A stretch of 64,000 nt of DNA from an uncultured Pseudomonadota bacterium (GTDB lineage: Bacteria > Oederibacteriota > Muellerivitia > Muellerivitales > Muellerivitaceae). The notes under the pieces were generated by a model. The model searched no databases, had not been told where the DNA came from, and saw only the letters and a program-made list of their open reading frames with translations. Below are positions 3,570 through 53,874 of the stretch, piece after piece. Numbering within the stretch: position 1 is the stretch's first letter; the number at the start of each line of letters is the position of its first letter. The DNA is taken from NCBI GenBank assembly GCA_963770835.1, contig CAVYRH010000004.1, positions 166,515 to 230,514 on the forward strand, given 5' to 3'. Both the position numbers and the translations under genes were made by a program.

Positions 3570-5677
3570 CGTTTTTTCCCTCGATTCCCAAAGTTATAAA
3601 CGAACCCCGGAATAATCCTCAAAAACCCCGCTGAAAAACCCGCGAGGGCGAGAAGAGTGATGAAAAGCCCCAGGCGGAAGGTGGCGGGTTCATAGCGGAA
3701 ATCCGCCTGCTGACCGCCTGATTCCACAGCCACGGCCATGAAAAGGCCGTAAGCCCTCAAAATGGGCGTGGGTTTTCCATCCACCCAGGCGTGCCATCCT
3801 GGTGCGTAGCTTTCATTAAATACCACATAACCCGGTGCCGGTGAATCGGTGAAAGCGAAGATCCAGTTTCCGGAGGGACGGTAAATATCCTTTGTCGGCC
3901 GAAGGGCCAGCAGCCGTGAAACCGGGGAAAGCTGAACGAGAGTTCTATCGGAATTCCTCTCCAAATAAATTTTCTCCCGCCATTGGCTGTTGGGCTGCGC
4001 CAGGACGTTGAGAAGGGAAGGGCGGTCGGGAAATTCCGCAGTTCCAGGAACCCGGCGCATATCCACGGAAGCTTGAGAATCCAGGGAGAGGAAATTTTTC
4101 CCTATTTTCCCAGCCAATCGGTATTTGGGGGCAGGAAGGGGCTGTGGCAGGAGAAAGGCGCGCACCCCGGCGATCTCCAAGAGGTCACCCGAATAGGGGA
4201 ATCCCAAGTTTAAGTAACGCATGGTGTCCTTCAAGTTCTCCGTCTGGAGGGAAAAATAACCGGTCACCGTTCTTAAGCCCCAAACCATGTTGGTGTTGGG
4301 CAGGAGATTATCCGGGAAAACCCGGGACAGCCTTTCCTTCATTTCATCGTCCGTTTTTTCACCCGCCACGGACATGAAGAGGGAAGTTTGCAGGGCCAAT
4401 AGTCTTTCTCCGTCGGCTTCCTTCTGGATTTCCCCCACTTGCCGCTGGAGGATCGGGTCCCGGTAAGGGTTCGGAATCCGGTCGGTCAGGCGGAAGGGTA
4501 ACACCAATAGGTCCACAAGCCACAGGGCGGCGAGGACCCAAACCCAGGAGGTCTTTTTTATTCCTTCCGCGGATGGGTCCGCCGGGTTCCCCAGGAAACG
4601 GCAAAGGGAGGTACAAGCGGCGAAAAGAAAAAGCCCCACCGCTTTGGAAGGTTCCAGGAGGTTAAAGGCCGTGGCCGGTATGAGCTTCCACAAGAAAAGG
4701 GAGGGCCCGGCCATCCACACGAGCAGCAGAAGCGACAAGGGCCCCCAAAACCCGGCGCGGGTTCTTTTAAACACAAGGGATGCCATCCAAACCAGGCATG
4801 GGATGAGGCCGAAGTAAAGGTCGCCGAAGAGGGAGTTGGTGGAATCACTCCGGTAGTCGGAAGCGCCTGGAACCCCCAAGAACGTGGGATGAAAGAGGGT
4901 CAGGTATTCCCAAGGATGGGTGTAATAGGGGAACAGGTTCCAATGGTCGTGGGTGGTGTAGGTTAAAAATTCAAAAAAAGGAAACCACTGAAGGGATGTC
5001 AAAAGAAGCGAAGCTCCCAAGAGAATCACCACCCGGCCGATGACAGACGCTAAAGGGTGCTCCAAAGCCATCCAAAACAAAAGAACAACCCAGGTGTAAA
5101 AGACAAAGGTGGGATATCCAGCCAAGAGTTGGAGGCTCAAGACGGCCACCGCCAGCAAGGATTCCTTCAGCCTTCGATGTTGGAGGGCCTGGTGGACGGA
5201 CAGGAAAACCCAGGGGATCCAGCTTGCGGTGGCGATGAAAGGGAGGTTGATCCAACAACGGATGAAATGGGCCGAACCCGCGAAGGAAAGGGCGCCCAAG
5301 GCCGCGACCCACCCCCCGCTTTTCTGGGACCGGGCCCAAAAAAAGAATCCCACGTAGGCCCAGGCCTCGTGCAAGAGCGCGAGCCAAACCAGCCCATGGG
5401 GAAGGCCCAGGGTGTTTAAAAGCCAATAAGGCGGGTAAAAAAAGGCCGACTGCCAATTGGCCAGGTGGGGTATGCCGCAGCTGAGATAAGGGTTCCAGAG
5501 GGGGATTAGCCCTGCCCGGAGACTTTCCAGGTTAAAGGCCCTCTCCGGATAGACGTAAGCCAGGATGTCATTGTGAAAGGGAAGCCGGTTCCCCAGCCAA
5601 AGGGCGGAGGCGGCCAGGGTTAACAAATAAAGTCCGGGCATCCATTTAGAGGAGAGGGGAAAAGGATACTTAACCAA
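3566..5677 (-). CDS. YfhO-family polytopic membrane protein (putative glycosyl or lipid transferase)
   Basis: 703 aa with more than 12 predicted TM helices. YfhO-like N-terminal and loop composition, plus a C-terminal soluble domain. Confidence 0.55.
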   Translation of the reverse strand: MVKYPFPLSSKWMPGLYLLTLAASALWLGNRLPFHNDILAYVYPERAFNLESLRAGLIPLWNPYLSCGIPHLANWQSAFFYPPYWLLNTLGLPHGLVWLALLHEAWAYVGFFFWARSQKSGGWVAALGALSFAGSAHFIRCWINLPFIATASWIPWVFLSVHQALQHRRLKESLLAVAVLSLQLLAGYPTFVFYTWVVLLFWMALEHPLASVIGRVVILLGASLLLTSLQWFPFFEFLTYTTHDHWNLFPYYTHPWEYLTLFHPTFLGVPGASDYRSDSTNSLFGDLYFGLIPCLVWMASLVFKRTRAGFWGPLSLLLLVWMAGPSLFLWKLIPATAFNLLEPSKAVGLFLFAACTSLCRFLGNPADPSAEGIKKTSWVWVLAALWLVDLLVLPFRLTDRIPNPYRDPILQRQVGEIQKEADGERLLALQTSLFMSVAGEKTDDEMKERLSRVFPDNLLPNTNMVWGLRTVTGYFSLQTENLKDTMRYLNLGFPYSGDLLEIAGVRAFLLPQPLPAPKYRLAGKIGKNFLSLDSQASVDMRRVPGTAEFPDRPSLLNVLAQPNSQWREKIYLERNSDRTLVQLSPVSRLLALRPTKDIYRPSGNWIFAFTDSPAPGYVVFNESYAPGWHAWVDGKPTPILRAYGLFMAVAVESGGQQADFRYEPATFRLGLFITLLALAGFSAGFLRIIPGFVYNFGNRGKKR

Positions 5678-36190: not shown

Positions 36191-37501
36191 CTAAACCTTC
36201 GCCGCGTTCAAGTCGGCGCAAAGAATGTAAAAGTCTCCCGTCGGATCCCCTACCACCATGGCCACAGTGACGCAGAGATGGCCGGAATTCATCGATAAGT
36301 AAGGATCGGTGAGGTAGCGATGTTGGGTGGGGGTTGAAAGAAGGGCGTAGTAAATCTCCCTCAATGAGTGATCGCTGCCCTTGGGCGAGGGGTGAAAAAG
36401 GATGCCCTTGCGCTCGGGAATGTGGTATTGACTGCAAAGGGTCTCGGTGACTTGGATTCCCTCAGCGTTCAAAAGATAAAGGCACTCCAGTGATTGGAAA
36501 TGAGGGAAAAGGGAAGGAAGTTCCGCCTCCCAATCCTCAACTGGCTTATTCGGAAGGCAGGCGGCGAGGGCCTCGGCGACCAACGCACAACGGTTTTTCA
36601 GGCCCCGATCCTTATTGGCTTTTCCGGTCATTCGGCGCTTAAACCGGGAGGCCAGGAACTGCATGCGGGATTTTCGGTTGAGCATGAAGATTGTGTTTTT
36701 TTTGTAATTCTTGGAAAAATACCGGCCCTGGACCAAGTCGGTCCCAAACTCCAGGGCCACCAAGGCATCTTCCTCACTCTCGATCCCGCTCGCAACCACC
36801 AAAATGCCCAGCGAATGGGCTCTTTTCAAAATGTTCATGAAAATCGCCTGTTTCTCCTTGCTGTTCGCCAGACCCCGGACCAGGCTTTCCTTCACCTTCA
36901 CCATGTCGGGGTTGAGCCGCAGGAGAATGTCCAGGTGCTGGGGGCTGCTGGTGACATCCTTGAGGGAGACCAGGAAACCGTAACCACGCTGGCTTTCCGC
37001 GAATTTCCATATTGATTGAAAGTCCGCTTGACCTGTAAGGGCGATTTGCACCACGATCCGGCGGGGATCGAGGGACCACTCGGCGGCTTGCCGGAACCAA
37101 TGGCCGGGTTCTTCCAGGGACTCCTCTAAGACGGAAGGTTCGGCATCCATGAACATCAGCAAATGCGGCGCCTGGGACTGGAGGGGGAAAAAAGTTTCAA
37201 GGGAATTTTGTAAGAAAAGGCGTTCCAGGGGCAGCCGAAGGTGGGAATCTGCCACGGTCATGGAACGGAATAGGTCCTCGGGTTCGAATAAACGGCTGGG
37301 GTCATCCGGATCCACGGCCCGGCGAACAGCCTCCAGGCCGATCACGCTCATTTTTTGAACCGATAGGAGGGGTTCGAAAAGGCAAGTGACGCTGCGCTGG
37401 TCTAAAATGTAAAAAGGATGGATGGGATAGGCGGCAACCAAGGCCTCTTCCAAAACTTCGTCCTTGCTTAAATCCTCCAGCTTCGGCAGTTCCAAAATCA
37501 T
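36191..37501 (-). CDS. EAL-domain protein (degenerate, likely non-catalytic) with a C-terminal uncharacterised domain
   Basis: EAL-family features: GLEAVRR (EAL-to-EAV), VKVKESLV, VASGIESEEDALVALEFGTDLVQGRYF. The DDFGTG loop is replaced by KDVTSS. A novel C-terminal domain of about 190 aa follows. Confidence 0.6.
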   Translation of the reverse strand: MILELPKLEDLSKDEVLEEALVAAYPIHPFYILDQRSVTCLFEPLLSVQKMSVIGLEAVRRAVDPDDPSRLFEPEDLFRSMTVADSHLRLPLERLFLQNSLETFFPLQSQAPHLLMFMDAEPSVLEESLEEPGHWFRQAAEWSLDPRRIVVQIALTGQADFQSIWKFAESQRGYGFLVSLKDVTSSPQHLDILLRLNPDMVKVKESLVRGLANSKEKQAIFMNILKRAHSLGILVVASGIESEEDALVALEFGTDLVQGRYFSKNYKKNTIFMLNRKSRMQFLASRFKRRMTGKANKDRGLKNRCALVAEALAACLPNKPVEDWEAELPSLFPHFQSLECLYLLNAEGIQVTETLCSQYHIPERKGILFHPSPKGSDHSLREIYYALLSTPTQHRYLTDPYLSMNSGHLCVTVAMVVGDPTGDFYILCADLNAAKV

Positions 37502-37949
37502 GTCTCAACCTCCCCGATCCTTCGTTAAGCTGACCCAGGGCTTGAATGTGCAATGGATATGCCAAGAAAAACATTATGAAGAAATCGTTTGTCGGATCTT
37601 CAACGAGGACAATTCCGTGGATCCCAAAGGACCGTGAAGTTTGCGGAGTTTAAAATTTTGAAAGTAAAATCGTTTGGCTTGTCGGAAAGGAAACAATGAA
37701 GGGATTTTTCATAAAACTGAAACGTTATCAGAGGAAATTATTCAAGATTTGAAAAGATTTTAGGCGGGCCGCCGAATATTTATACATCCGTCAGATTAAT
37801 TCGCCTAGGAAGCGGCTGAATTATAGGTCTATTTGTTCCACCCCGTGACGGGAAATCGGGAACAGGCTGAAATTTTTTAATATTAAAATTTGGACCGAAA
37901 AAATTTTGAAGAAAACCCTAGTGAGTCTTCCGGGGGATTTTAAATCCGG

Positions 37950-41981: not shown

Positions 41982-43316
41982 TTAGTGACGGACTAGCAGC
42001 TTGGCGGTTTTATAGCCCACATGCCCATTGGGCCCCTCCACGTCCACGACCGCGATATACAGCCCGCTGGCCATTCCTCCCGCGTTCCAAACCGCCTGAT
42101 CCGCTCCAGTGCTCCCTTGGGTAGTCCCCACCAGTTCACCGGCCACGTTGTAAACCCGCACTTTGAGGGTGAATCCCTGGGTTGAATTCACCGTGAAGAC
42201 CGCCGTAGTTTGCCCTCCCGCCAGCACATTGGGCTCCACCAGCAGTTGCCCGGGGACCATTCCCCTTGAGCCGTCCATCACTGATACCTGGCGAGTGACA
42301 ACCTGGTCATTGGGCCCGCTCAGCCAGGAAGCTTCCACGTAGTATTGGCCGTTCGTCACCATGCCGCCCTGGTCATTGGTGCCGTCCCAAACCAATGTCA
42401 CGCTTCCGCCGGAAACAGACACATTGATGGTGATTTGCGACGATGAGGTGGAAGAGGCCGAGACGACACCGGGCGCGACCGTATTGGAGGATAAGTCCAA
42501 GGACTGGATGGTGCTGTTGGAGTTCGACACGATTCCCTGGTAGAGGTGTTTCACGATCTCACCGGCCTCGTTATAAACGGCGACTGAAAGGGTGGAGAGG
42601 GAGCGGTTGACGCTGACGTTCTGGGTGACGGAGGTGACAACACCCAAAGAATCGGTGCTTTGGACCTTGATGAAATACTGGCCGCTGGTGACCTCCGTGC
42701 CATTCTGGGCCGTGCCATCCCAGGAAGCCACCGTCGCATCGAGGATGGAGACGGAAGTGGAAGAAACCTGGTTGGTCAAGGACATGGAGGAGAGTTGGAA
42801 GGAGGAGATGGTTTGGGCGAAGTTCTGGACCAGGAGGGTTTTCACCAGTTCACCCGCCGAATTGTAGACGGCGACCTGGACGGTGATGGGGAAAATTACC
42901 GTCACCGGCGCGGTGACGGACTGGGGCTGTCCTCCCGTCTCTTGCACCTGGGCGTTGTTGAGGAGGACGGTTTGTTCCACCAGGCTGGAAGAAATGGTCA
43001 CGGTGTAGGGAAGCTGGTAGACGCCGGGGGCCAGGGAAGGGAAGGCCCAGGTGAGGACGGGGCCGGTTTGACCCATGGTTTCGCCCGCCACGGCAGGCGA
43101 GGGTTGGCCCATCCCCGCGAAAACCACCTGCGCGGGCAGGGTATCCGTAACTTGGACGTTGGAGGCTGTGGAACCCGAGACGGTCAGCAGGATCCGGTAA
43201 ACCACGGTATCACCGGGATGGGCTGTGGTTTCGGAAGCGATCTTTTGGATTTGGATTCCCGGAGTGGGGGTCGCCGTGTTGGTGGGCGTGGAGGTATAGG
43301 TGGAAGTGGGAGTGAA
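41982..43316 (-). repeat. Paralogous duplication unit A (C-terminal DUF11 plus 3x FlgD-Ig), about 85% identical to 47119-48453
   Basis: The protein C-termini of about 445 aa align nearly colinearly. Nucleotide similarity is visible at the 3' ends of both genes. Confidence 0.8.
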
Positions 43317-46300
43317 AGTGAAGGTGAGGGTCGGTGTAAAGGTGTCAGTGGAAGTGGGCGTAAGCGTAGTGGTGGAGGTCGGTGTAAAGGTCGATGTCCG
43401 GGTGGGCGAGTCCGTCGGCGTCGAGGTGGCGGTCATGGTTGGCGTAAGGGTGGGTGTGGAGGTGTCCGTAACCGTCGCGGTTGGGGTCGCGGTGAAGGTT
43501 GAGGTTAAGGTGGATGTGACGGTGGCCGTTGGCGTGGCAGTCGAGGTCAAGGTAGCGGTGGAGCTGGGGGTGAAAGTTGGGGTGGCCGTAGGAGTGGCCG
43601 TTTCCGTAGACGTGAAAGTGAGGGTGGGCGTGGAAGTCGCCGTAAAGGTGGGCGTGGCGGTGGGCGTAGAAGAAGGCGTGGTGGTGGGGGAATTCGTCGG
43701 CGTATCCGTGGGAGTGGAGGTGGGCAGGGGGGTTGTGGTATTCGTGGGCGTGTTGGTGGCCGTGGCGGTGGAAGTGTTGGTGGGAGTTAAGGTGGGTGTG
43801 GAGGTCGGCGTCGCGGTCGCAGTGGATGTGGGAGTGGCTGTGGGGGTGTAAGAGGGGGTTGGGGTCATCGTGCTAGTGGGGGTGGCCGTCGGGGATGGGG
43901 TCGGGGTATGGGTGACGGTATTCGTGGCAGTGGCTGTCGCAGTGTTGGTCGGAGTTAAAGTCGGCGTCGTGGTCGCCGTGAAAGAAGGTGTCGAAGAAGG
44001 CGTAGGCGTGGGGGTATTCGTCGGCGTATTCGTGGGGGTGGAGGTGGGCAGAGGGGTTGTGGTGTTCGTGGGCGTGTTGGTGGCCGTGGCGGTGGAAGTG
44101 TTGGTGGGAGTTAAGGTGGGTGTAGAAGTCGGAGTCGCTGTGGCGGTGGAAGTGGGGGAATCCGTGGGGGTACGGGTAGCTGTCAGTGTCGTGGTGTTCG
44201 TCGGAGTGGCCGTCGGGGACGGGGTAGGGGTGTTGGTGGCGGTATTTGAAGGGGTATTGGTCGCGGTAAAGGTGGAAGTCATCGTTGCCGTGGAAGTGGC
44301 CGTGGAAGTGGGCGTGGAGGAAGGCGTGGCGGTGGGGGAATTGGTCGGCGTATTCGTAGGGGTGGAGGTGGGGATGGGCGTTGTGGTGTTTGTGGCCGTC
44401 GGGGTAGCTGTGGCAGTGGCGGAACTGGTCGGGGTCAGGGTGGCCGTGGCGGTTGAAGTATTCGTCGGCGTGTTGCTCGGCGTGTTGGTTGGTGTGTTCG
44501 TCGGGGTGGCCGTAGGGCTGTTGGAAGGGGTTGGGGTGGGCGTGTTGGTCGGAGTGTTGGTGGGCGTATTGGTCGTGGTGGCTGTGGGGGTGTTGGTGGG
44601 TGTATTGGTGGGAGTGTTGGGCAGGGTGTTGGTCGGAGTGTTGGTGGGGGTATTGGTTGGAGTGGCCGTGGGGGTGTTGGTTGGCGTTAAAGTCGGCGTA
44701 TTGGTGGGGGTTGGGGTATCGGTGACTGTCGGCGTGTCCGTGGGCGTGGCCGAGGGGGTGTTGGTGGGCGTGCAGGTGTATCCCACGTTATTGGTCACGG
44801 CGTTGGATAAGAGAGTGGAAGGCTGGGTCTCAAAATTTTCCTCCTCGGCGATATTGGTCACAACCCCGGAACAGGTTCCCGCCGGCAGGGCTCCGACGGT
44901 GACACTGAAGGAAAGGGTTCCCGAAACGCCCGCTGCCAGGTAGTTGATCTGCCAGAGCAAATCCTGCCCCACCAGGGCGGTGACAGGCTGGTAGGGATTG
45001 CTGGTGACCGAATTGGAAAGAAGGTTTGTCCCGGTCGGGATCGTGTCGTTGATTACAACGCCGTCGATGGCGGAGGTGCCGGTATTCTTATAGGCCAGGG
45101 TGTAAGTGATGGTCTGTCCCTGGTTCACCTGGCCGGCCGGGTTGTTGGACTTGGCCAGGGTAATGCTGGGGTTGGGGCAGGAAATCCACTGGGGACAGTC
45201 GAAGTAGCCCCATCCATAATGGCCGCCTTCGCCGCAGTCATATTCGCTCACGACGATGGTGCATTGCTGGCCCGCGTATTGGCACAGGTTGAAGGTATAG
45301 GGGGTCCAGGGAAAAACCCCCCAGTTCGTCCCGTTGGAGGGGTTCACCTGGCAGCCGCCCGCCGCGCCGACCGTTCCGGCGTTGTTCCCCACCAAGCCGT
45401 CCAGGGTCACCAGGCCCGACCCGACCAGGTACTGCCAATTGAGCAGCAGGTCGTAAACCTGCAGGCCGCCCGCGCCGCATTGGCCCCCGCCGATATAAAC
45501 CTGGACCTCCAGGTAGGCGTCGTCGTTGGGGTTGCCCGGATTGTTGAGGTAGTGGTAATTCTCGAAAACACCCGCCAGCTCAAACGACAGGCAGCAAGAA
45601 CCGTTGGTTGGAACCGTTGAACTGGTGCAGACCCGGGCGTAATCGCCATGGTTCGTGTCCCCCCGGCCCGAGAAAAGCTGGTAGGCGCTGGGCTGGCCGG
45701 CCGGGACCGTGTTTAGGAGCCCGTTCGAGTTGGGGGCTATCCCGGGACCCACGGGGACGGCCACCGGGTTGCATGCTACGTTGGCGCCCGTATTAATAAG
45801 GGAGGTCCAATTCGTAAATTCGCTTGAACAGGCATTGGGCCAGGGGATGGGAGTGAAAGTCGGCGTAAAAGTGGAGGTGGAAGTAAAGGTTGGCGTGGGA
45901 GTGTGGGTGAAGGTTGGAGTGAAAGATGCCGTCGGGGTAGAGGTGGGCGTGGCCGTATCGGTCAGGGTGAAAGAGGAAGTGGGCGTGGAAGTGGAGCTAA
46001 GGGTGGCCGTACTGGTAGGAGTGAAGCTGGCCGTCGGCGTGAAGGTTGAAGTCGGAGTGGAGGTGCCTGTGTTTGTCGGTGTCACCGTCGGGGAATTGGA
46101 GGCTGTGGGAGTGGGTGTGGCGGTATTCGTGGGAGTGACCGTCGCGGTGTTGGTTGAAGTCGGAGTCTGCGTTGAAGTTGATGTGGAAGTGGGACTGGGG
46201 GTAGCCGTGCCGGTCGGGGTGTCAGTGAAGATGGCCGTATTGGTCAGCGTGAATGTGAAGGTCGGAGTGGGGCTGGGCGTGTCCGTTGGGGACGCCATGG

Positions 46301-46429
46301 GCGTCGAGGTTGAAGTATCGGTGGGGGAATCGGACGGGGTTAAGGTCTGGGACCTCACCGGCGCGACCGCGAGGAAAGCCAGGGTCGTCAAGATCCATAA
46401 GACCGATCTTACTGGGGACAGTTGTATCA
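41982..46429 (-). CDS. Giant secreted surface protein: signal peptide, PT array, beta-sandwich N-domain, DUF11, 480-aa PT linker, DUF11, 3x FlgD-Ig/T9SS-CTD-like modules
   Basis: ORF open to 46544. The probable start is ATG 46429 (MSEMIQL..) after AGAAGGA. DUF11 motif [23 protein letters not shown].. and C-terminal VRVYNVAGELV...GLYIAVV. Confidence 0.85.
43320..44780 (-). repeat. Long PT-linker codon tandem repeat (ACN-CCN)n, about 1.45 kb
   Basis: Encodes TPTNTPTATPTNTPTNT... The plus strand reads as GVGV artefact ORFs. Confidence 0.85.
45842..46337 (-). repeat. N-terminal PT/ST low-complexity array of giant protein 1
   Basis: SPTDTSTSTPMASPTDTPSPTPTFTFT... directly after the signal peptide. 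Confidence 0.75.
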
Positions 46430-47118
46430 TCTCCGACATTTCAGTCCTTCTTTCGGATTCTAAAAGCCTCTCTGAAACGGGCCTGTTGATTGAACGGAAT
46501 CGGGGGTGTCCAGCGGCAACCAGACGGGCGATTAGGAGGAACAAATGGAAAGATATTTTCTTTTGTTTTTTGCATTAGATAGTTCGAAAAACCACCAAAG
46601 TAATGTGGAAATTCTTCCAACATTCCCTTTTAAATGGGAACGCCCGGAATGGACGCGAATAGGGAATGACGCGATTTCATTCTGAAATCTTCCCGTCTTT
46701 CTGGTTTCCAAAAACGCCTCCTCCATTCGGTTCGCCGGAAATTTTCCGGTGGACACGGAAAAGGGTGACATTTCGACTCTCTCCCCTAAATGAGCACGTT
46801 CAATGCCAGTTCAAAGCGAGTCATGTTTCAAAAAAGAAAATTTGTCCTGGGAAGCGGGTGGAGTAAAACGAGTAAAAATGTCTTAAACACGTCCGAGTTG
46901 TATTTTTTTTGAAAAAGATAACGGCAAATTAATTTGGACGGGAAATTCCTCCTTTTGAAACCGATTGAAATTTTTACATCCGCCGGTTTTTTTAACATCC
47001 CACAGGTGGTATCTAAGAGAACTAGTAGAAAAACCCCTTAAATCGGTTATTTCCCCCCGAATCCGCCTTTATCGTGTTCATCGGTGTTTCACTGACCCCA
47101 TTTTTGCCTGGGTTTGGT

Positions 47119-48453
47119 TTAATGCCGCACCACCAGCTTGGTGGTTTTGTAGACGACATGCCCATTTGGCCCCTCCAAGTCCACCACGGCGATATATAAC
47201 CCGCTTGCCATTCCCCCCGCGTTCCAAACCGCCTGGTCCGCCCCGGAAGGCCCCTGAACCGCCCCCACCAGTTCGCCAGCCACGTCATAAACCCGCACCC
47301 TCAGGGTGAAACCTTGGGCCGAATCCACCGTGAAGACAGCGGCTGTTTGTCCGCCGGCCAGTACATTGGGCTCCACCAACAGCTGACCCGGAACCATCCC
47401 CCGGGATCCGTCCACCACCGATACCTGCTGGGTGACGACTTGGTCGTCCCCGCCGTTCAACCAGGAGGCTTCCACGTAATATTGGCCGTTGGTCACCATG
47501 CCGCCCTGGTCATTGGTGCCGTCCCAGGCCAGCGTCACGCCGGCCCCGGCCATGGCGACCAAAACCGTAATGGACGAGGAGGAAGGAGAAACGGTAGGGG
47601 AACCAGGAGTAACCACGGTGGAGGACAAAACCACGGACTGGATGGTATTGCTGTTGCTTGGCACGATCCCCTGGTAAAGATGTTTCACCACTTCGCCCGT
47701 CTCGTTGTAAACGGCCACGGAGAGGGTGGAAAGGGATCGGTTGACGCCGACGGTCCGGGTGACGGTGGTGACTACGCCGAGGGAGTCGGTGCTTTGGACC
47801 TTGATGAAATACTGGCCGTTGGTGACCTCCGTGCCGTTCTGGGCCGTGCCGTCCCAAGTTGCCACCACGCCAAGGATGGAGACGGCGACGGAGGAAACCT
47901 GGTTGGTCAAGGACGTAGAGGAGAGTTGGAAGGAAGAGATGGTTTGGGCGAAGTTCTGAACCAAGAGAGTTTTCACCAATTCACCAACCGAATTGTAAAC
48001 CGCGACCTGGACGGTGATGGGAAAAACCACAGTGACCGGCGCGGTGACGGACTGCGGCCGGCCACCGGAGAAGACTACTTGGGCATTGTTTAAGAGCACG
48101 GTTTGCTCCACGAGGGTGGAGGAGACGGCGACCGTATAGGGCAGCTGGTAGACACCGGGGTTCAAGGAAGGGAAAGACCAAGCGAGGACAGAGCCGTTTT
48201 CGCCCATAGCCTCACCCACCACGGAAGGCGAGGGCTGGCCCAGGCCCAAGAAAGCAACCTGAGCGGGCAGGGTGTCGGTAACTTGGACGTTGGAGGCGGT
48301 GGAGCCGGAAACGGACAGGAGGATTTTGTAGGTGAGGGTGTCCCCCGGGTGGGCGGAGGTTTCGGAGGCGGATTTTTGGATTTGGATGCCGGGCGTGGGG
48401 GTGGAAGTGTTGGTGGGAGTGGGCGTAAAGGTGAAGGTGAGGGTGGGGGTGAA
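47119..48453 (-). repeat. Paralogous duplication unit B (matches 41982-43316)
   Basis: Same as above. Confidence 0.8.
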
Positions 48454-49950
48454 GGTATCCGTGGGAGTGGGCGTGAGCGTGGGTGTGAAGGTGGGTGTGA
48501 AGGTCGGGGTTTTCGTGGGAGTGGCGCTTGGAGTGGGCGTATCGGTATTCGTGAAGGTATAGGTGGGTGTAGGGGTTGGGGTGTTTGTGGGTGTAAGGGT
48601 TGGGGTGTTGGAAGAGGTGTTGGTGGGGCTGTTGGTCGGGGTGTTGGTGGAGGTAGAGGTGTCCGTCATGGTGGGCGTGGATGTGGAAGTGGCCGTGGCG
48701 GTTGACGTTGGGGATAAAGTGGGAGTCCAGGTTAAGGTCACGGTGGGTGTTAAAGTGACTGTGAAAGTATTGGTGGCAGTGCCGGTATTGGTGCTCGTGG
48801 CCGTGGCGGTGAAGGTCGGCGGACAGCCAACGACCGTATTCGTAACGGCGTTGGAGATGAGCCCGGCGGTTTCCAGGTCGGACTCAACGGCGGTGTTGGG
48901 GATGTCCCCACAAGTGGAGCCAGCCACCACCTGGAAGGAGACGGTCCCGGTGTTGCCCGGATAAAGGTATCCGACGTCCCAAATCAGGTCATTGCCGATC
49001 ATGGCGGTGGCGGGGATGCTGGGACTGCTCCCCATGGACCCGGGGACGAAGGCCGTGCCCGTAGGGACGGTATCGTTGATCACCACTCCGTCGATGGGCG
49101 AGGTGCCCGTATTGGCGTAAGACAAGGTATAGGTGATGGTTTGGCCCTGGTTTACCTGGCCCGTAGGGCTATTGGCCTTAGTGAGGGTAATGCTGGGGGA
49201 GGGACAGACCCCCCAACTGACGTCGTCCAAATAGCCCAGGCCGAAATGCCCTCCCGCCACGCAGTCGTAATCGGTGACGCGCAATGTGGCCTGCTGGCCC
49301 GCGTATTTGCAGAGGTTGATGGTGTATTGGGTCCAGGGAAGGTAGCCGAAATCGTTGCCGCCATCATTGCCACCCCCCCCACCGCCTGCGTCCTGGCAGA
49401 AGCCGGTGTTTCCGACTCCCGTCAAGCCATTCACCACCACCTGGCCCAAGGTATTGGACCAGGTGTAGCGCAAGCTGGCCACCGTCGTGCCCCCGACGAG
49501 GACTTCCACTAAAAGATAAGTGTCCCCAGCCAGGTCGCCTTGCAAGTAATGGTGGTCCTCAAAAACAGCGGCGAACCAGAAAGAAAGGCAGCAGGTACCG
49601 TCAGTCGGCACCGTATCGGTTTGATAGATCTGGGCCCAGTCGGCGTGGTTATTGTCGCCACGGGCCGAAAAGAGCTGGGCGGCGTAGTTGCCGGTGTGGA
49701 CCTGGTTCAAACCGGCGGGGGCCAGGGGGCCGGCGGAATCGGGCGCGACGCCCACGGGAACCACGGTGACACTGGGCGGGGCGCAAACTACGTTGGGGCC
49801 CGAGGCGATCGCGGTGGTCCAGCCGGTCAGGTTGCCCGTTTCAAAACCGGGGTTCACCCAGGCTTGCGCGCTGGAGAAACCCGAGGCCGTGAAGAGCAAT
49901 GGCAATAGGAAGGTTCGCGAGGAAGAGAAAAGACTCATTAGTTTTGACAT
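47119..49950 (-). CDS. Giant secreted surface protein, paralog 2: signal peptide, beta-sandwich N-domain, DUF11, PT linker, DUF11, 3x FlgD-Ig/T9SS-CTD-like modules
   Basis: 943 aa. Signal peptide ..GFSSAQA. N-domain [10 protein letters not shown] (CBM-like). Same architecture as gene 1 but with a short PT linker. Confidence 0.88.
48438..48828 (-). repeat. PT-linker tandem repeat in paralog 2
   Basis: [49 protein letters not shown]... Confidence 0.8.
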
Positions 49951-50494
49951 ATCCCTGCGCCTCGGCGTTTAACAAATGGTTTTTTCAAAAAAGTTAAGTT
50001 TGTGATTATGAGAATTTTTTTTGGACCAACATCACTGGCTATTGCGACCCTACCACCGGAAAATGAAAGAGTACAAGCGGCCATTCCAAAATTTTACCGG
50101 GAAGTAAAAATATTTTTGCATCCAGGGAGTTAAACGAAATGGAGTGCCGTAGATTTGTCCGAAATTTTTTTTGACCCTGATCACGCAGTAAAACGAAAGT
50201 AAATGGCGTGCTTAACGATTTTAGAAAAAACGATACCGGTTAATTTTCGAAAAAAACGTTTTCGGATTTTTTCTCCGCGAACAGCCGGCAAAAAATCGAA
50301 AGTTAATCGCCTTTAAATCGGAGTGCTGCGAAAATTATTTCACTGGTTTTTTAATGACATGATGGGAAGGATTCCTTTGGGTGGCGGCATAATTCACCGA
50401 TTTTTAATGGGTAATTTCCCGTTGACGGAAACTAAGGGTTGACACGAAGATAAAAGCCGAAAGATCGGCCCTTCGGCCCATTAGGAGAAAGTCC

Positions 50495-50905
50495 TTGGCG
50501 GGTTATTCCCAAACACCCCTTCTGAAGAAACTTGGGATCAAAGGCGAGTTCCGCATGGCTGTCCTTAACGCCCCCCAGGACTATTTCAAATGGTTGGGCC
50601 AACTGCCGCCGGGCGTCCAAGTTGTTTCTTTTCCCAAGGGAGAAATGGATTTCATCCATTTTTTTACCAAGAACCGCAAGGAATATGAAAAGAGATTGGT
50701 GGACTTTAAAAAAGCCGTAGCGCAGGACGGTATGATCTGGGTTTCCTGGCCCAAAGCGGCCTCCAAAGTGCCAACGGACGTGACGGAAAAGGTGGTACGT
50801 GAATACGCCTTAAAGATCAGCCTGGTGGACATCAAGGTCTGCGCGGTGGATGAAACCTGGTCGGGTTTGAAACTGGTGATTCCGGTGAAAGACCGTAAAA
50901 AATGA
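50495..50905 (+). CDS. DUF3052-family protein
   Basis: MAGYSQTPLLKKLGIK...WVSWPKAASKVPTDVTEKVVREYALKISLVDIKVCAVDETWSGLK matches DUF3052 conservation. Confidence 0.7.
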   Translation: MAGYSQTPLLKKLGIKGEFRMAVLNAPQDYFKWLGQLPPGVQVVSFPKGEMDFIHFFTKNRKEYEKRLVDFKKAVAQDGMIWVSWPKAASKVPTDVTEKVVREYALKISLVDIKVCAVDETWSGLKLVIPVKDRKK

Positions 50906-51276
50906 ACGAGGCCCTATCGCCAATTGGACTTAGGCTTGGCAATATCAATTGTTGGTCGGCAATCGGGGATTGTTCTTTGTTAGCCTTGATTTATTGATTT
51001 TCTCAAACTTACACTCAAATGCCGTTAGATATTTGGGTGTAAGTTTTTTTGGTTATGGAGTGTATTTATGTTTTTTCAAAAAAACAAAAAGGCCGCACCC
51101 ACCCGTTTATCCTTTGGGAGAACAAACCGCTTCAGCTTTAGACTAAAGACTTCGAAGCCACGGAGAGAGTTGTGACTTTTCCTTTCGGAAGGTGCGGTTA
51201 AATTTAATTTAAAAACGAAGGGATAGATTTCAAGGGGGAGGGGGGAGAACCGCAAAATTTTCAAAGGGAATAAAAA

Positions 51277-51313
51277 CCCTCAACTGCCGCCAGGCAGTTG
51301 AGGGTTTTTATTT
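51277..51313. terminator. Bidirectional rho-independent terminator (12-bp perfect stem CCCTCAACTGCC / GGCAGTTGAGGG)
   Basis: A-tract upstream and TTTTTATTT downstream. Lies 370 bp from the nearest annotated gene end. Confidence 0.8.
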
Positions 51314-51651
51314 GGAAATGGAGTTTATTTACAATAAAAAAGGCCGCACGCTCCGGAATTCCGGAGATCAGGGGCTCACCCAGTTTTTAGTGGTAGTGGC
51401 CCGTACTCTGATGGACTGTGCGACCTTTTTTCATTTTCTCCCATCCTTCGATGGGTACAAGTGGAATCTTGAAATCCCGGATTATTTTTAGCGCATAAAG
51501 CAGGCCAGTAAAAAAGAACCGGCCGAAAAATAAAAAACGCTTTTTTAACAGGCTGGGAAAAAATAGAACAATCTATTTTCAAAACAACGCTTTTGTAAAA
51601 ACGTTTGAAATTAAAGATAAAAGTGTCCTCCGAAAACCTCCCGAAGTTTGC

Positions 51652-53874
51652 GTGGGAGAACGATCTTTTTTGGGCTATAACTATTTGAGTTTTGTTGAGC
51701 ATCCAAAGCGGCTAAGGAATTTTTTGGAATTTTTCAAAAACACCCAGGTGAAAAAAGCGGCTTTTCCGGCAGTGTTTGTTTTAGCCGCATTGGGCCAATG
51801 GTTCATGGCCCAAAACCAGGCAACGGCAACCGTTTTTCCGGCGCTGTTTTTTTACGCTTTCGCGCTTTATCTTTGGTTTCTCACTTTAAAAAAAGAGAAA
51901 ACCGGACTCCTGGATGAAAAGCCCCTGACGGCCCGGCTGGAATGGGTGTTGTTTGGCTTTATCCTTTTAATAGCTTTTTTTTTAAGGGTTTATGAGCTTG
52001 ATCAAATCCCTTCGGGCATCTACCTGGATGCCTCAGGGCCCGCCCTTTACGCCCTTAAAATGCTTCACGAGCATTTTAAGCCCCCCTTTATGCTTCCCGC
52101 CTTCGCGGCCAATCCTTCGTATTTGGTGTATCTTTTGGCAGTTTGGTTCCGTTGGTTTTCCCCGACCCAGGTGAACCTGTTCCTGTTTTACGTTGTTTTC
52201 GCCATGGCCGCTTTGCCTTTCATTTATTGGACTTTTCGCCAATTGGCAGGCCCCCAGTCCGCTCTTTTAACCGTTTATTTCATCGCCGTCATGCGGTGGC
52301 ACATGGTTTTCAGCCGAATCGGCTTTCGGGGAATCCAGGTTCCCTTTTACATGTTTGGAACCCTGGCGTTTTTTCTCTACGGTTTAAAACTCAAGAAAGG
52401 TTGGCCTTTTTTCCTTTCCGCGCTGTTTTTAACAGGCGGGTTATACACTTATCAATCCTTTAAAGCATTCCCTTTAATGATGTTGATCCTGTTGGTTTAC
52501 GAGCATTTCAAAAACCCCAAAACGCTGAAAGCCCTGGCGGTTCCCCTCCTGGCATCGGCCGCTTTGTGCGGTTTCTTCACGGTTCCCTTACTCCATTACT
52601 GGAACCAGCAGGGCAGCCTGGGAACCCGGGAATCGCAGATTTTTATCGGGAAAGAGGTGGTCCAGGAGAAAAGCCTGCGGCCCTTGGCGGAGAAAGCCCT
52701 GCAAACCGCCTTGATGTTTAACCGAAAGGGCGAAGAACAACCGCGGCATAATTTCAAAGATCACCCAATCCTCGACGATGTCACGGGGCTCTTTTTTATT
52801 TTGGGTTTTTTCCTCGCGCTTTGGAAATTCCGGCAAAAGCCTTATTTTTACGCGGTTTGCGGCTTTTTCGTCATGAGCCTGCCCGGCCTGCTTTCCAGCG
52901 AGGAAACCCAATCTCATCGGATGCTGGGCGCCCTCCCTTTCGCGGCTTTTTTCGCGGCCGGCGCGGTTTTAACCTGGCGCAAGGGCATGGCCGAGCGTTT
53001 TCCTTCCTTTCGTCCCTGGGTTAACGGCCTCGTGATGGGGCTTCTGATTTTCGCGGCCATCGAAAATATCAAAACTTATTTCGTGGACCAGGCAGGGGAT
53101 TATGACTGTTGGAGGGATTTCAACATCGAGGCTACGACCGTTGGGAAAACCGTCGTCCAGCACCCGAACACGGTCTTTTACCTGGCGCCGGCCTTTTACG
53201 ACCATTTCACGGTTCAATACCTGGATTATTTCGAGTCCAACCGCGTCCATTTACTGGATTTGGGGGAAATGAACCATCTACCTCTGGATACCCGCCTTTC
53301 CAAGATTTGCTTCGTCCTGGACGAGGGAAAAAGTCCGACTTTGGCCTTTTTGAAAGGCCTCTATCCTCAGGGACAGGAAGAGCCTTTTAAGGACCGGTAC
53401 GGGAAAACACTCGCGTTTTTTTATTACGTTTCGGGCCAGGTAAAACCGATTTCGTTTCAAAAGGGCCTCCAAAGATGGGAAAACCCTAATGAAAACTCTC
53501 CCGACTTGGTCTCCACCGGACTTGTACAAGACCCCCTCATTAATTTCACTAATATCGGCGATTTGGGGGTCAGCCATCCGCCGGTTTTGGCGGTTTGGAA
53601 GGGGAAAATTCGTATACCGGCAACGGGTTCTTACGGTTTTCTCATTCTCACCCAAGATAAAGGAGAATTGGATTTGGATGGCCGGAAAGTGGTGGAGAAC
53701 CTTCAAGGTGGGGAAGAAGTGATCCGCTTGACGGCAGGGTGGCATTCCGTCGAGCTAACCTGCCAGAGGGACAATAACCCGGATGTGGCCCTGGATTTCC
53801 ACCTTCTCTGGAAAAAGCCCGGTAACCTCAACTATGAAGTCGTTCCGAATTCGGCTTTCGGGAAAATCCGATAA
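51652..53874 (+). CDS. GT39/PMT_2 (ArnT-like) membrane glycosyltransferase fused to a C-terminal PA14 domain
   Basis: Polytopic N-terminal 450 aa with PMT/ArnT-like loop motifs. C-terminus GSYGFLILTQDKGELDLDGRKVV.. is PA14-like. Confidence 0.6.
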   Translation: MGERSFLGYNYLSFVEHPKRLRNFLEFFKNTQVKKAAFPAVFVLAALGQWFMAQNQATATVFPALFFYAFALYLWFLTLKKEKTGLLDEKPLTARLEWVLFGFILLIAFFLRVYELDQIPSGIYLDASGPALYALKMLHEHFKPPFMLPAFAANPSYLVYLLAVWFRWFSPTQVNLFLFYVVFAMAALPFIYWTFRQLAGPQSALLTVYFIAVMRWHMVFSRIGFRGIQVPFYMFGTLAFFLYGLKLKKGWPFFLSALFLTGGLYTYQSFKAFPLMMLILLVYEHFKNPKTLKALAVPLLASAALCGFFTVPLLHYWNQQGSLGTRESQIFIGKEVVQEKSLRPLAEKALQTALMFNRKGEEQPRHNFKDHPILDDVTGLFFILGFFLALWKFRQKPYFYAVCGFFVMSLPGLLSSEETQSHRMLGALPFAAFFAAGAVLTWRKGMAERFPSFRPWVNGLVMGLLIFAAIENIKTYFVDQAGDYDCWRDFNIEATTVGKTVVQHPNTVFYLAPAFYDHFTVQYLDYFESNRVHLLDLGEMNHLPLDTRLSKICFVLDEGKSPTLAFLKGLYPQGQEEPFKDRYGKTLAFFYYVSGQVKPISFQKGLQRWENPNENSPDLVSTGLVQDPLINFTNIGDLGVSHPPVLAVWKGKIRIPATGSYGFLILTQDKGELDLDGRKVVENLQGGEEVIRLTAGWHSVELTCQRDNNPDVALDFHLLWKKPGNLNYEVVPNSAFGKIR

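Follow-up and report, generated by a model that had tools for sequence, protein, structure and literature searches.

What is specified by the roughly 750 bp of hairpin-dense, non-coding DNA that separate a DUF3052-like gene from a PA14-containing glycosyltransferase-like gene in an uncultured bacterium, and from which strand is it read? We addressed this question in a stretch of 64,000 nucleotides (nt) of contig CAVYRH010000004.1, hereafter the window. All coordinates are positions in this 64-kb window, and those of a preliminary description of the same DNA agree with them to within a few bases. That description had proposed that the region contains one or more candidate small RNAs (sRNAs). 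Comparative evidence supports this core reading and revises the strand and the boundaries: on the minus strand the spacer probably carries two independent, tandem genes for structured sRNAs, which have separate promoters and are specific to a clade within candidate division FCPU426. We refer to them as sRNA-1 and sRNA-2 and infer their transcription from sequence comparison.

The flanking genes are those named before, with weak Pfam support. The DUF3052-like gene occupies positions 50495-50905 on the plus strand, and relatives of the downstream glycosyltransferase-like gene are named GT39 or PMT in their sources. The spacer is AT-rich, as had been stated, with a GC content of 0.42-0.45 versus about 0.55 elsewhere. 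The phylum FCPU426, a candidate division, is widespread in soils and peat. We know of no cultured member and of no described regulatory RNA of this phylum, and a literature search on FCPU426 returned community surveys and studies of metagenome-assembled genomes (MAGs) only.

Two units of the spacer are nearly invariant among related loci

Related loci (designated L003 and so on) were found through the glycosyltransferase protein in three GTDB genomes and in the contigs of database homologues. Two of the three GTDB genomes are labelled candidate division FCPU426; the third, labelled 'Proteobacteria', is clearly a relative. Alignment of the spacers revealed two near-invariant blocks, unit 1 (about 51088-51200) and unit 2 (51337-51431). 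Across 9 to 10 related genomes, most of them FCPU426, the DNA identity of these blocks remains at 85-95%. Outside both blocks the spacer diverges, and the flanking genes share about 68-70% DNA identity. The two hairpins at 51005-51046 and 51269-51312 are replaced in sequence among the relatives and are still hairpins there. By blastn, unit 1 is 89-94% identical in seven distinct loci; in L008 its identity is 92%, where the glycosyltransferase is 46% identical at the protein level. Unit 2 was found in 11 copies at 10 loci with 73-96% identity, at every locus upstream of the glycosyltransferase gene. Flanking proteins are 46-74% identical across genomes in which the 92-nt unit singled out in the preliminary description is nearly invariant, as is a second unit that extends from the first copy of the 13-mer described below. 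Both RNAs are far more conserved than the neighbouring protein genes with which they were compared, and are therefore probably central to FCPU426 physiology.

The distant relative L014 contains two copies of sRNA-2 (1170-1268 and 3682-3780), one on either side of the glycosyltransferase gene. Both have a sigma54-like motif of their own, and the duplication extends about 35 nt beyond the core in either direction. The second copy lies upstream of an amine-oxidase gene on the same strand.

Covariance models built for the two RNAs (R1 for sRNA-2, R2 for sRNA-1) found no additional copy in the window or in the other loci examined. A metagenome scan with a 22-mer from unit 2 returned one locus, L006, apparently from the same species as L005. 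Scans of viral contigs with two patterns gave no match for one and two chance matches for the other, both rejected by the covariance model. Because the more distant glycosyltransferase loci (L007, L015-L017, L020 and L021) carry neither RNA, both RNA families appear to be confined to a sub-clade; a 12.7-bit match in L021 was just a long hairpin.

No described RNA family accounted for the units. In the Rfam scan that the preliminary description had suggested (Rfam 15), there was no match at the gathering score in the whole window. At E ≤ 10, the 50300-52300 segment gave terminator-driven sub-threshold matches only, the best with 28.9 bits against a gathering score of 45, and the diverged homologues in L008, L013 and L014 gave none at E ≤ 0.1. 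ARAGORN detected no tRNA or tmRNA. The pattern of change, with frozen helices, free loops and linkers, and indels of +1, +5 and -2 nt, points to functional RNA rather than protein.

Both units are predicted to fold into closed, multi-branched structures

sRNA-2 is predicted to be a three-way junction. R1 scored 113.5 bits at 51335-51433 on the minus strand versus 16 bits on the plus strand. Its closing helix P1 (GGUCGCAC/GUGCGGCC) is formed by AAAAAAGGUCGCAC (51431→51418) and GUGCGGCCUUUUU (51349→51337). In P2, AUCAG is separated by an internal loop from GGGC.CACU, which leads to an apical loop that varies and measures about 14-25 nt. The palindrome noted previously (CTCCGGAATTCCGGAG, 16 bp, 51351-51366, unique in the window) forms P3, CUCCGG-N4-CCGGAG. 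The loops of sRNA-2 are variable and its helices invariant, which argues for recognition by a protein rather than through a single-stranded seed.

The repeat reported in the preliminary description, the 13-mer AAAAAGGCCGCAC, was recovered exactly at 51086-51098 and 51337-51349. A reverse-complement copy with one mismatch lies at 51418-51430 and pairs with the second copy; a search of the 64 kb allowing 0-1 mismatch found only these three matches. The repeat had been regarded as the start of a unit. Read on the minus strand, it instead supplies the U-tail and the 3′ side of the closing helix, so that both RNAs would share a 13-nt 3′ end, GUGCGGCCUUUUU, which is the 13-mer read on the other strand. 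R1 and R2 cross-match through the shared closing helix only (E = 0.85-1.5), and the predicted duplex between sRNA-1 and sRNA-2 is dominated by the same helix.

For sRNA-1, R2 scored 145 bits at 51083-51202 on the minus strand. The closing helix P1 (CCGCACC/GGUGCGG) pairs the 5′ AACCGCACC (51199→51191) with GGUGCGG(CC) (51099→51091) and is followed by a U-run (51090→51078). The interior consists of a UUCC-GNRA-GGAA hairpin and hairpins H1, H2 and H3. H1 presents a nearly invariant, C/U-rich apical loop of 10 nt, AACUCUCUCC, which is complementary to GGAGAG; the loop of H2 varies and that of H3 is CCCAA. Two folds, one with an extended P1 and one with the GNRA hairpin, are isoenergetic. One potential target, a pairing of GUUCUCCCA in sRNA-1 with TGGGAGAAC (51654-51662), was rejected: relatives carry TGGGAGG instead of the matching sequence, and the site probably belongs to promoter DNA rather than to mRNA.

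The pattern of substitutions is compatible with these structures. Variable columns concentrate in unpaired positions, with 10/54 paired versus 32/41 unpaired columns variable in one RNA (p = 6e-9) and 7/68 versus 14/39 in the other (p = 0.002). A standard pair occurs in 98.7% of the alignment cells, versus 29-50% when the partners are slid. Most pairs never vary. The base-pair changes comprise one A-U<->G-C exchange, in P2 of sRNA-2 and the sole two-sided change, and several one-sided changes (U-G to C-G or U-A); one P1 position of sRNA-2 is U-G in eight copies, C-G in two and U-A in one on the minus strand.

Structure and flanks favour the minus strand

Because the promoter-like motifs lie to the right of the units, G-U pairs on one strand face A-C mismatches on the other, and a GNRA loop is kept on one strand only, the minus strand gives the better reading for both RNAs. 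Consensus folding with Alifold gave -39.65 kcal/mol on the minus versus -34.64 on the plus strand for sRNA-1, and -35.75 versus -30.56 kcal/mol for sRNA-2. Five invariant G-U pairs of sRNA-1 on the minus strand (in H2, H3 and P1) become A-C mismatches on the plus strand, and the U-G in P1 of sRNA-2 becomes a conserved C-A mismatch. The tetraloop of sRNA-1 alternates between GAAA and GCGA, a change that retains the GNRA motif only on the minus strand. On this strand a U-run directly follows the closing helix in 10 of 11 copies of sRNA-2 and in 6 of 7 of sRNA-1; L012 has lost the U-run and has a canonical minus-strand terminator directly after sRNA-2. The left flank of each unit is variable, indels included, such as a 19-nt insertion that abuts unit 1 in L003.

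Conserved promoter motifs precede both RNAs on the minus strand

Upstream of sRNA-1 on the minus strand lies a sigma70-type promoter motif that scored 9/12 against the consensus in a generic scan. The pattern TTGAWW-N16-TARATT occurs once per locus in six of the seven distinct genomes, always 6 nt before AACCGCACC, and has no other match on either strand in 166 kb. The hexamers are conserved and the spacer sequence between them is variable. Retained hexamers, a spacer within 16-18 nt and a start about 7 nt further on are as expected of a sigma70-type promoter, and transcription of sRNA-1 is predicted to start at about 51199.

sRNA-2 is preceded by a sigma54-type -24/-12 element. The pattern TGGYNNNNTTKATGC was found once for each copy of sRNA-2 in every locus (twice in L014), on the minus strand only and nowhere else in these loci. 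The GG and the GC of the canonical GG-N10-GC arrangement are invariant in 11/11 copies. The motif is separated from P1 by 66-69 nt in 10 copies; in L014b, where the nearer -35-like element is missing, the distance is 21 nt, a position that fits a promoter, not a distal operator. The predicted start from this element is at about 51481, which would place a leader of about 50 nt before the core. The sequence upstream of the motif contains nothing beyond A/T tracts and a semi-conserved block. Between this element and P1 lies a possible proximal sigma70-like promoter, which reads CTTGAG-N16-GAAAAT in the relatives and is weaker than the promoter of sRNA-1.

Elsewhere in the window, a canonical sigma54 element, TTGGCATATCCATTGCA, is located at 37550-37564 on the minus strand, about 36 nt upstream of a Shine-Dalgarno sequence and an ATG. 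The gene behind it (36191-37501, minus strand) encodes an EAL-domain protein resembling cyclic diguanosine monophosphate (c-di-GMP) phosphodiesterases. This element hints that the organism uses sigma54.

Proposed mechanism and alternative explanations

Two tandem minus-strand sRNA genes would operate as follows. sRNA-1 would be made from a sigma70-type (housekeeping-type) promoter, with transcription starting directly in the closing helix, and would act in trans; its loop AACUCUCUCC would be the likeliest site to pair with the ribosome-binding sites of target mRNAs, a classic means of blocking translation initiation. sRNA-2 would be transcribed from the sigma54-type promoter about 66 nt upstream and probably also from the proximal sigma70-like promoter. 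Because a sigma54-type promoter needs an enhancer-binding activator, sRNA-2 would be signal-dependent. The shared end GUGCGGCCUUUUU, comprising closing-helix strand and U-tail, may serve as a terminator, as a shared protein-binding module, or as both; as a 3′ module it could provide either a common partner or a common element for termination or stability. The hairpin at 51269-51312 would back up termination of sRNA-2 and insulate the promoter of sRNA-1.

Several observations weigh against this proposal. Covariation is weak: the only two-sided pair change represents a single evolutionary event, and 19 of the 27 pairs of sRNA-2 never vary. An RNA with several branches and a long-range closing helix would be an unusual intrinsic terminator. 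The promoter motif of sRNA-1 is not recognisable in L008, and the sigma70-like motif of sRNA-2 is a poor match to the consensus. No signature of rpoN or of a bacterial enhancer-binding protein (bEBP), namely GAFTGA, the bEBP Walker-A or the RpoN-box, was detected in the window or in the fetched loci. Some strand signals are also contrary, and we regard these as minor: P1 of sRNA-2 in L014b has A-C on the minus and G-U on the plus strand, two more G-U pairs form in P1 of sRNA-1 when it is read on the plus strand, and the middle hairpin of L004, L005 and L008 has U-G pairs on the plus strand.

These contrary signals speak for an alternative, implied by the preliminary description, in which the same two RNAs are encoded on the plus strand: each would begin with AAAAAGGCCGCAC after a terminator, unit 1 would run to the 51269-51312 hairpin, and unit 2 would be terminated by its own closing helix and T-run. 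In the window, the plus strand does have T6 after unit 2 and T5 after that hairpin, and folding of the single sequence is nearly as good on the plus as on the minus strand (-42 versus -44.3 kcal/mol). However, no conserved promoter-like motif is found to the left of either unit, where the flank varies and contains indels; the conserved hexamer pairs with fixed spacing sit to the right and resemble promoters on the minus strand only. Moreover, consensus folding on the plus strand is less favourable by about 5 kcal/mol, hairpin H2 disappears from unit 1, P1 of unit 2 has a conserved C-A in 8/11 copies, and the T-run after unit 2 is not conserved. We therefore consider a plus-strand origin quite unlikely. 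A plus-strand cis-regulatory leader or riboswitch of the glycosyltransferase gene, formed by unit 2 or by both units, would explain why unit 2 precedes this gene in 10/10 loci, why its second copy in L014 precedes the amine-oxidase gene on the same strand, and why it is a compact three-way junction. All of the minus-strand evidence counts against such a leader, the best strand being opposite to the downstream gene. In addition, the gene starts 220-300 nt away and has its own conserved promoter-like block before it, no conserved expression platform follows the unit on the plus strand, no riboswitch family was matched, and the very strong terminator would cut unit 1 off from the gene. This makes a leader very unlikely.

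That the conserved blocks are small protein genes or copies of a mobile or repeat element, such as a miniature inverted-repeat transposable element (MITE) or a repetitive extragenic palindromic (REP) sequence, is hardly credible. Short open reading frames (ORFs) do overlap both units, and those on the plus strand at 51049-51141 and 51312-51491 both begin with ME.IY..KK..GRT; unit 2 has terminal inverted repeats. Nevertheless, the units contain indels that are not multiples of three and break the frame (+1 in L003, +5 in L013, -2 in L014), the start codon and the frame are not kept in L003, L004 and L005, and there is no third-position pattern, whole helices being invariant while loops vary. 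Each unit occurs once, at a syntenic position that does not change, with one locus in each related contig; no other copy turned up in the 64 kb or in related loci totalling about 100 kb.

Two further alternatives retain sRNA-2 on the minus strand. It is possible, though doubtful, that the TGGC-N7-TATGC motif serves a different regulator or belongs to a longer primary transcript, and that the RNA arises from the sigma70-like promoter only. This would agree with the missing rpoN and bEBP signatures in the available sequence, with ATGC in place of TTGC in the motif, with a constant spacing of 66-69 nt as for an upstream operator, and with the failure to find a clear inverted-repeat activator site upstream. 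On the other side, the invariant positions in the 11/11 copies are exactly the GG and GC of GG-N10-GC, the motif of L014b is 21 nt from an RNA whose -35-like element is missing, and the canonical TTGGCATATCCATTGCA is correctly placed before another gene in the same window. The other alternative centres on a protein: the closing-helix/U-tail module (..CGCAC / GUGCGGCCUUUUU) would dock one phylum-specific RNA-binding protein or RNase adaptor, and sigma54-induced sRNA-2 would be a decoy that titrates it from a constitutive, base-pairing sRNA-1. We judge such a decoy unlikely; if it existed, an uncultivated phylum would have evolved its own analogue of GlmY/GlmZ-RapZ independently, with a possible link to the envelope glycosyltransferase next to the locus.

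Comparison with known small RNAs

With the preferred reading of two minus-strand sRNA genes, the RNAs represent new families of a familiar kind. In Enterobacteriaceae, glmY and glmZ have promoter architectures with sigma54 and/or sigma70 (PMC3045617), and GlmY acts as a decoy for RapZ, a protein that binds both GlmY and GlmZ (PMC7073468). The locus described here resembles that system in three respects: it has two predicted small RNAs, of which one or both combine a sigma54-type with a sigma70-type promoter; they share a module, the 13-nt 3′ end, through which they could compete for one protein, as GlmY does for RapZ; and a cell-envelope glycosyltransferase-like gene adjoins them. In contrast to GlmY and GlmZ, the two RNAs are not homologous over their length, R1 and R2 matching each other through the closing helix only, and match neither the GlmY nor the GlmZ model of Rfam; membership in these families was rejected on these grounds. 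They are also tandem neighbours, whereas glmY and glmZ are unlinked, and the two putative promoters of sRNA-2 are about 50 nt apart and do not overlap. A RapZ-like partner and a decoy relation are hypothetical here.

The Qrr RNAs of Vibrio are multi-copy sRNAs of about 100 nt that depend on sigma54 and LuxO (PMC10162802). sRNA-2 is similar in that a sigma54-type promoter directly precedes an RNA of about 100 nt and that the copy number varies, with two copies in L014. Unlike Qrr, it has no match to the Rfam Qrr model, and it forms a closed three-way junction where Qrr forms a row of stem-loops. Its variable loops and invariant helices are the opposite of a conserved single-stranded seed.

Other parallels concern sRNA-1 or both RNAs. 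RsaE/RoxS of Firmicutes are base-pairing sRNAs whose C/U-rich loops mask Shine-Dalgarno sequences, and the nearly invariant 10-nt C/U-rich loop of H1 is comparable; the differences are the phylum, the absence of an Rfam match and the near-invariance of the whole of sRNA-1, and targets are hypothetical here. 6S RNA and Y RNA/YrlA have paired 5′ and 3′ ends and protein partners, and Salmonella YrlA is found in a sigma54/RtcR-controlled operon. Likewise, sRNA-1 and sRNA-2 have a closing helix formed by the two ends, a link to sigma54 and very high conservation that includes the helices, suggesting protein recognition. However, they match no 6S or Y RNA family in Rfam 15 and have neither the long bulged hairpin of 6S RNA nor a tRNA-like domain, and no Pfam match typical of Ro/Rsr or RtcB was found among the flanking genes scanned.

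The R1 and R2 covariance models can be used for annotating FCPU426 MAGs. The set of sigma70-type and sigma54-type promoter motifs is offered for a phylum without known promoters, and the locus makes a concrete candidate for sRNA regulation that depends on a signal.

Terminators, repeats and neighbouring features

The coordinates of the features are collected in Table 1. Both strong hairpins of the preliminary description are present. The one with T7 (ACTTACAC...GTGTAAGT) has arms at 51005-51020 and 51031-51046 that are 94% complementary (minimum free energy, -20 kcal/mol; z = -5.75); L004 and L005 have a hairpin of other sequence at this position. The second, at 51269-51312, has a 4-nt loop between its arms, a CCCTCAACTGCC/GGCAGTTGAGGG core, an A-run before and a T-run after it, and T5 on either strand (minimum free energy, -34.6 kcal/mol; z = -9.3); L004, L005 and L008 have a hairpin of different sequence there. 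Both have the sequence features of intrinsic (Rho-independent) terminators and would be expected to act as such. The second had been taken to end an unannotated plus-strand transcript at 50.9-51.3 kb. Our analysis places it differently: on the minus strand it follows sRNA-2 at a distance of 25 nt and precedes the promoter of sRNA-1.

Table 1. Features of the spacer, with window coordinates (arrows give the direction of reading)
Feature	Position	Strand	Description
Intrinsic terminator of the DUF3052-like gene (candidate)	51005..51051	plus	Hairpin 51005-51046 followed by T7
sRNA-1 (predicted)	51199→about 51080 (feature 51078..51199)	minus	About 120 nt; covariance model and conservation
sigma70-type promoter of sRNA-1 (predicted)	51206..51233	minus	-35 TTGAAA (51233→51228), 16-nt spacer, -10 TAAATT (51211→51206)
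Bidirectional terminator hairpin (candidate)	51269..51312	either strand	Perfect 20-bp arms, A-/T-runs
Direct repeat TTGGnnATGGAGTnTATTTA	51044..51068 and 51307-51331	either strand	25 nt, 84% identity
sRNA-2 core (predicted)	51431→51337	minus	About 95 nt, three-way junction; covariance model and conservation
sigma70-like motif of sRNA-2 (possible promoter)	51433..51460	minus	TTGTAC, N16, GAAAAT, ending 7 nt before P1
sigma54-type -24/-12 element TGGCCTGCTTTATGC (putative)	51493..51507	minus	GG-N10-GC

The direct repeat TTGGnnATGGAGTnTATTTA lies just 3′ of the U-run of each sRNA. On the minus strand it reads ..ACUCCAU.., resembling an anti-Shine-Dalgarno or anti-start-codon sequence, and it is only partly conserved among the relatives. 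The terminator hairpins that flank sRNA-1 share the core AAATGCC-GTTA-GACATTT, in opposite orientation in different genomes (compared were 51005-51046 of the window, about 620-650 of L008 and the middle hairpins of L004 and L005), which suggests a common origin or an inversion. A conserved long hairpin of about 115 nt, GCGCCCCGTCTCC...GGAGACGAGGCGTT, is found in L005 (3400-3520) and L009 (550-670) between the sRNA-1 promoter and the middle hairpin. The window lacks it; Rfam gave no match, and the element may represent a third non-coding RNA of the locus.

The glycosyltransferase ORF of 740 aa that opens with GTG at 51652 is probably too long at its 5′ end. Alignments with homologues begin only at residue 22, and relatives use a TTG start; the likely start is therefore the TTG near 51723, and the spacer likely extends to about 51722. 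A conserved block upstream of this start, AAAGTTTGCGTGGGAGR...GCTATAAC, resembles the promoter region of the gene.

GC skew is very strong (+0.4 to +0.5) at 43000-45000 and 48000-49000. At 48-49 kb it coincides with long Thr/Pro-rich repeat linkers in the ORF at 47119-49950 (minus strand), which encodes a very large secreted protein with DUF11, FlgD_ig and Por_Secre_tail domains. The skew at 43-45 kb lies inside the ORF at 41982-46544, also on the minus strand.

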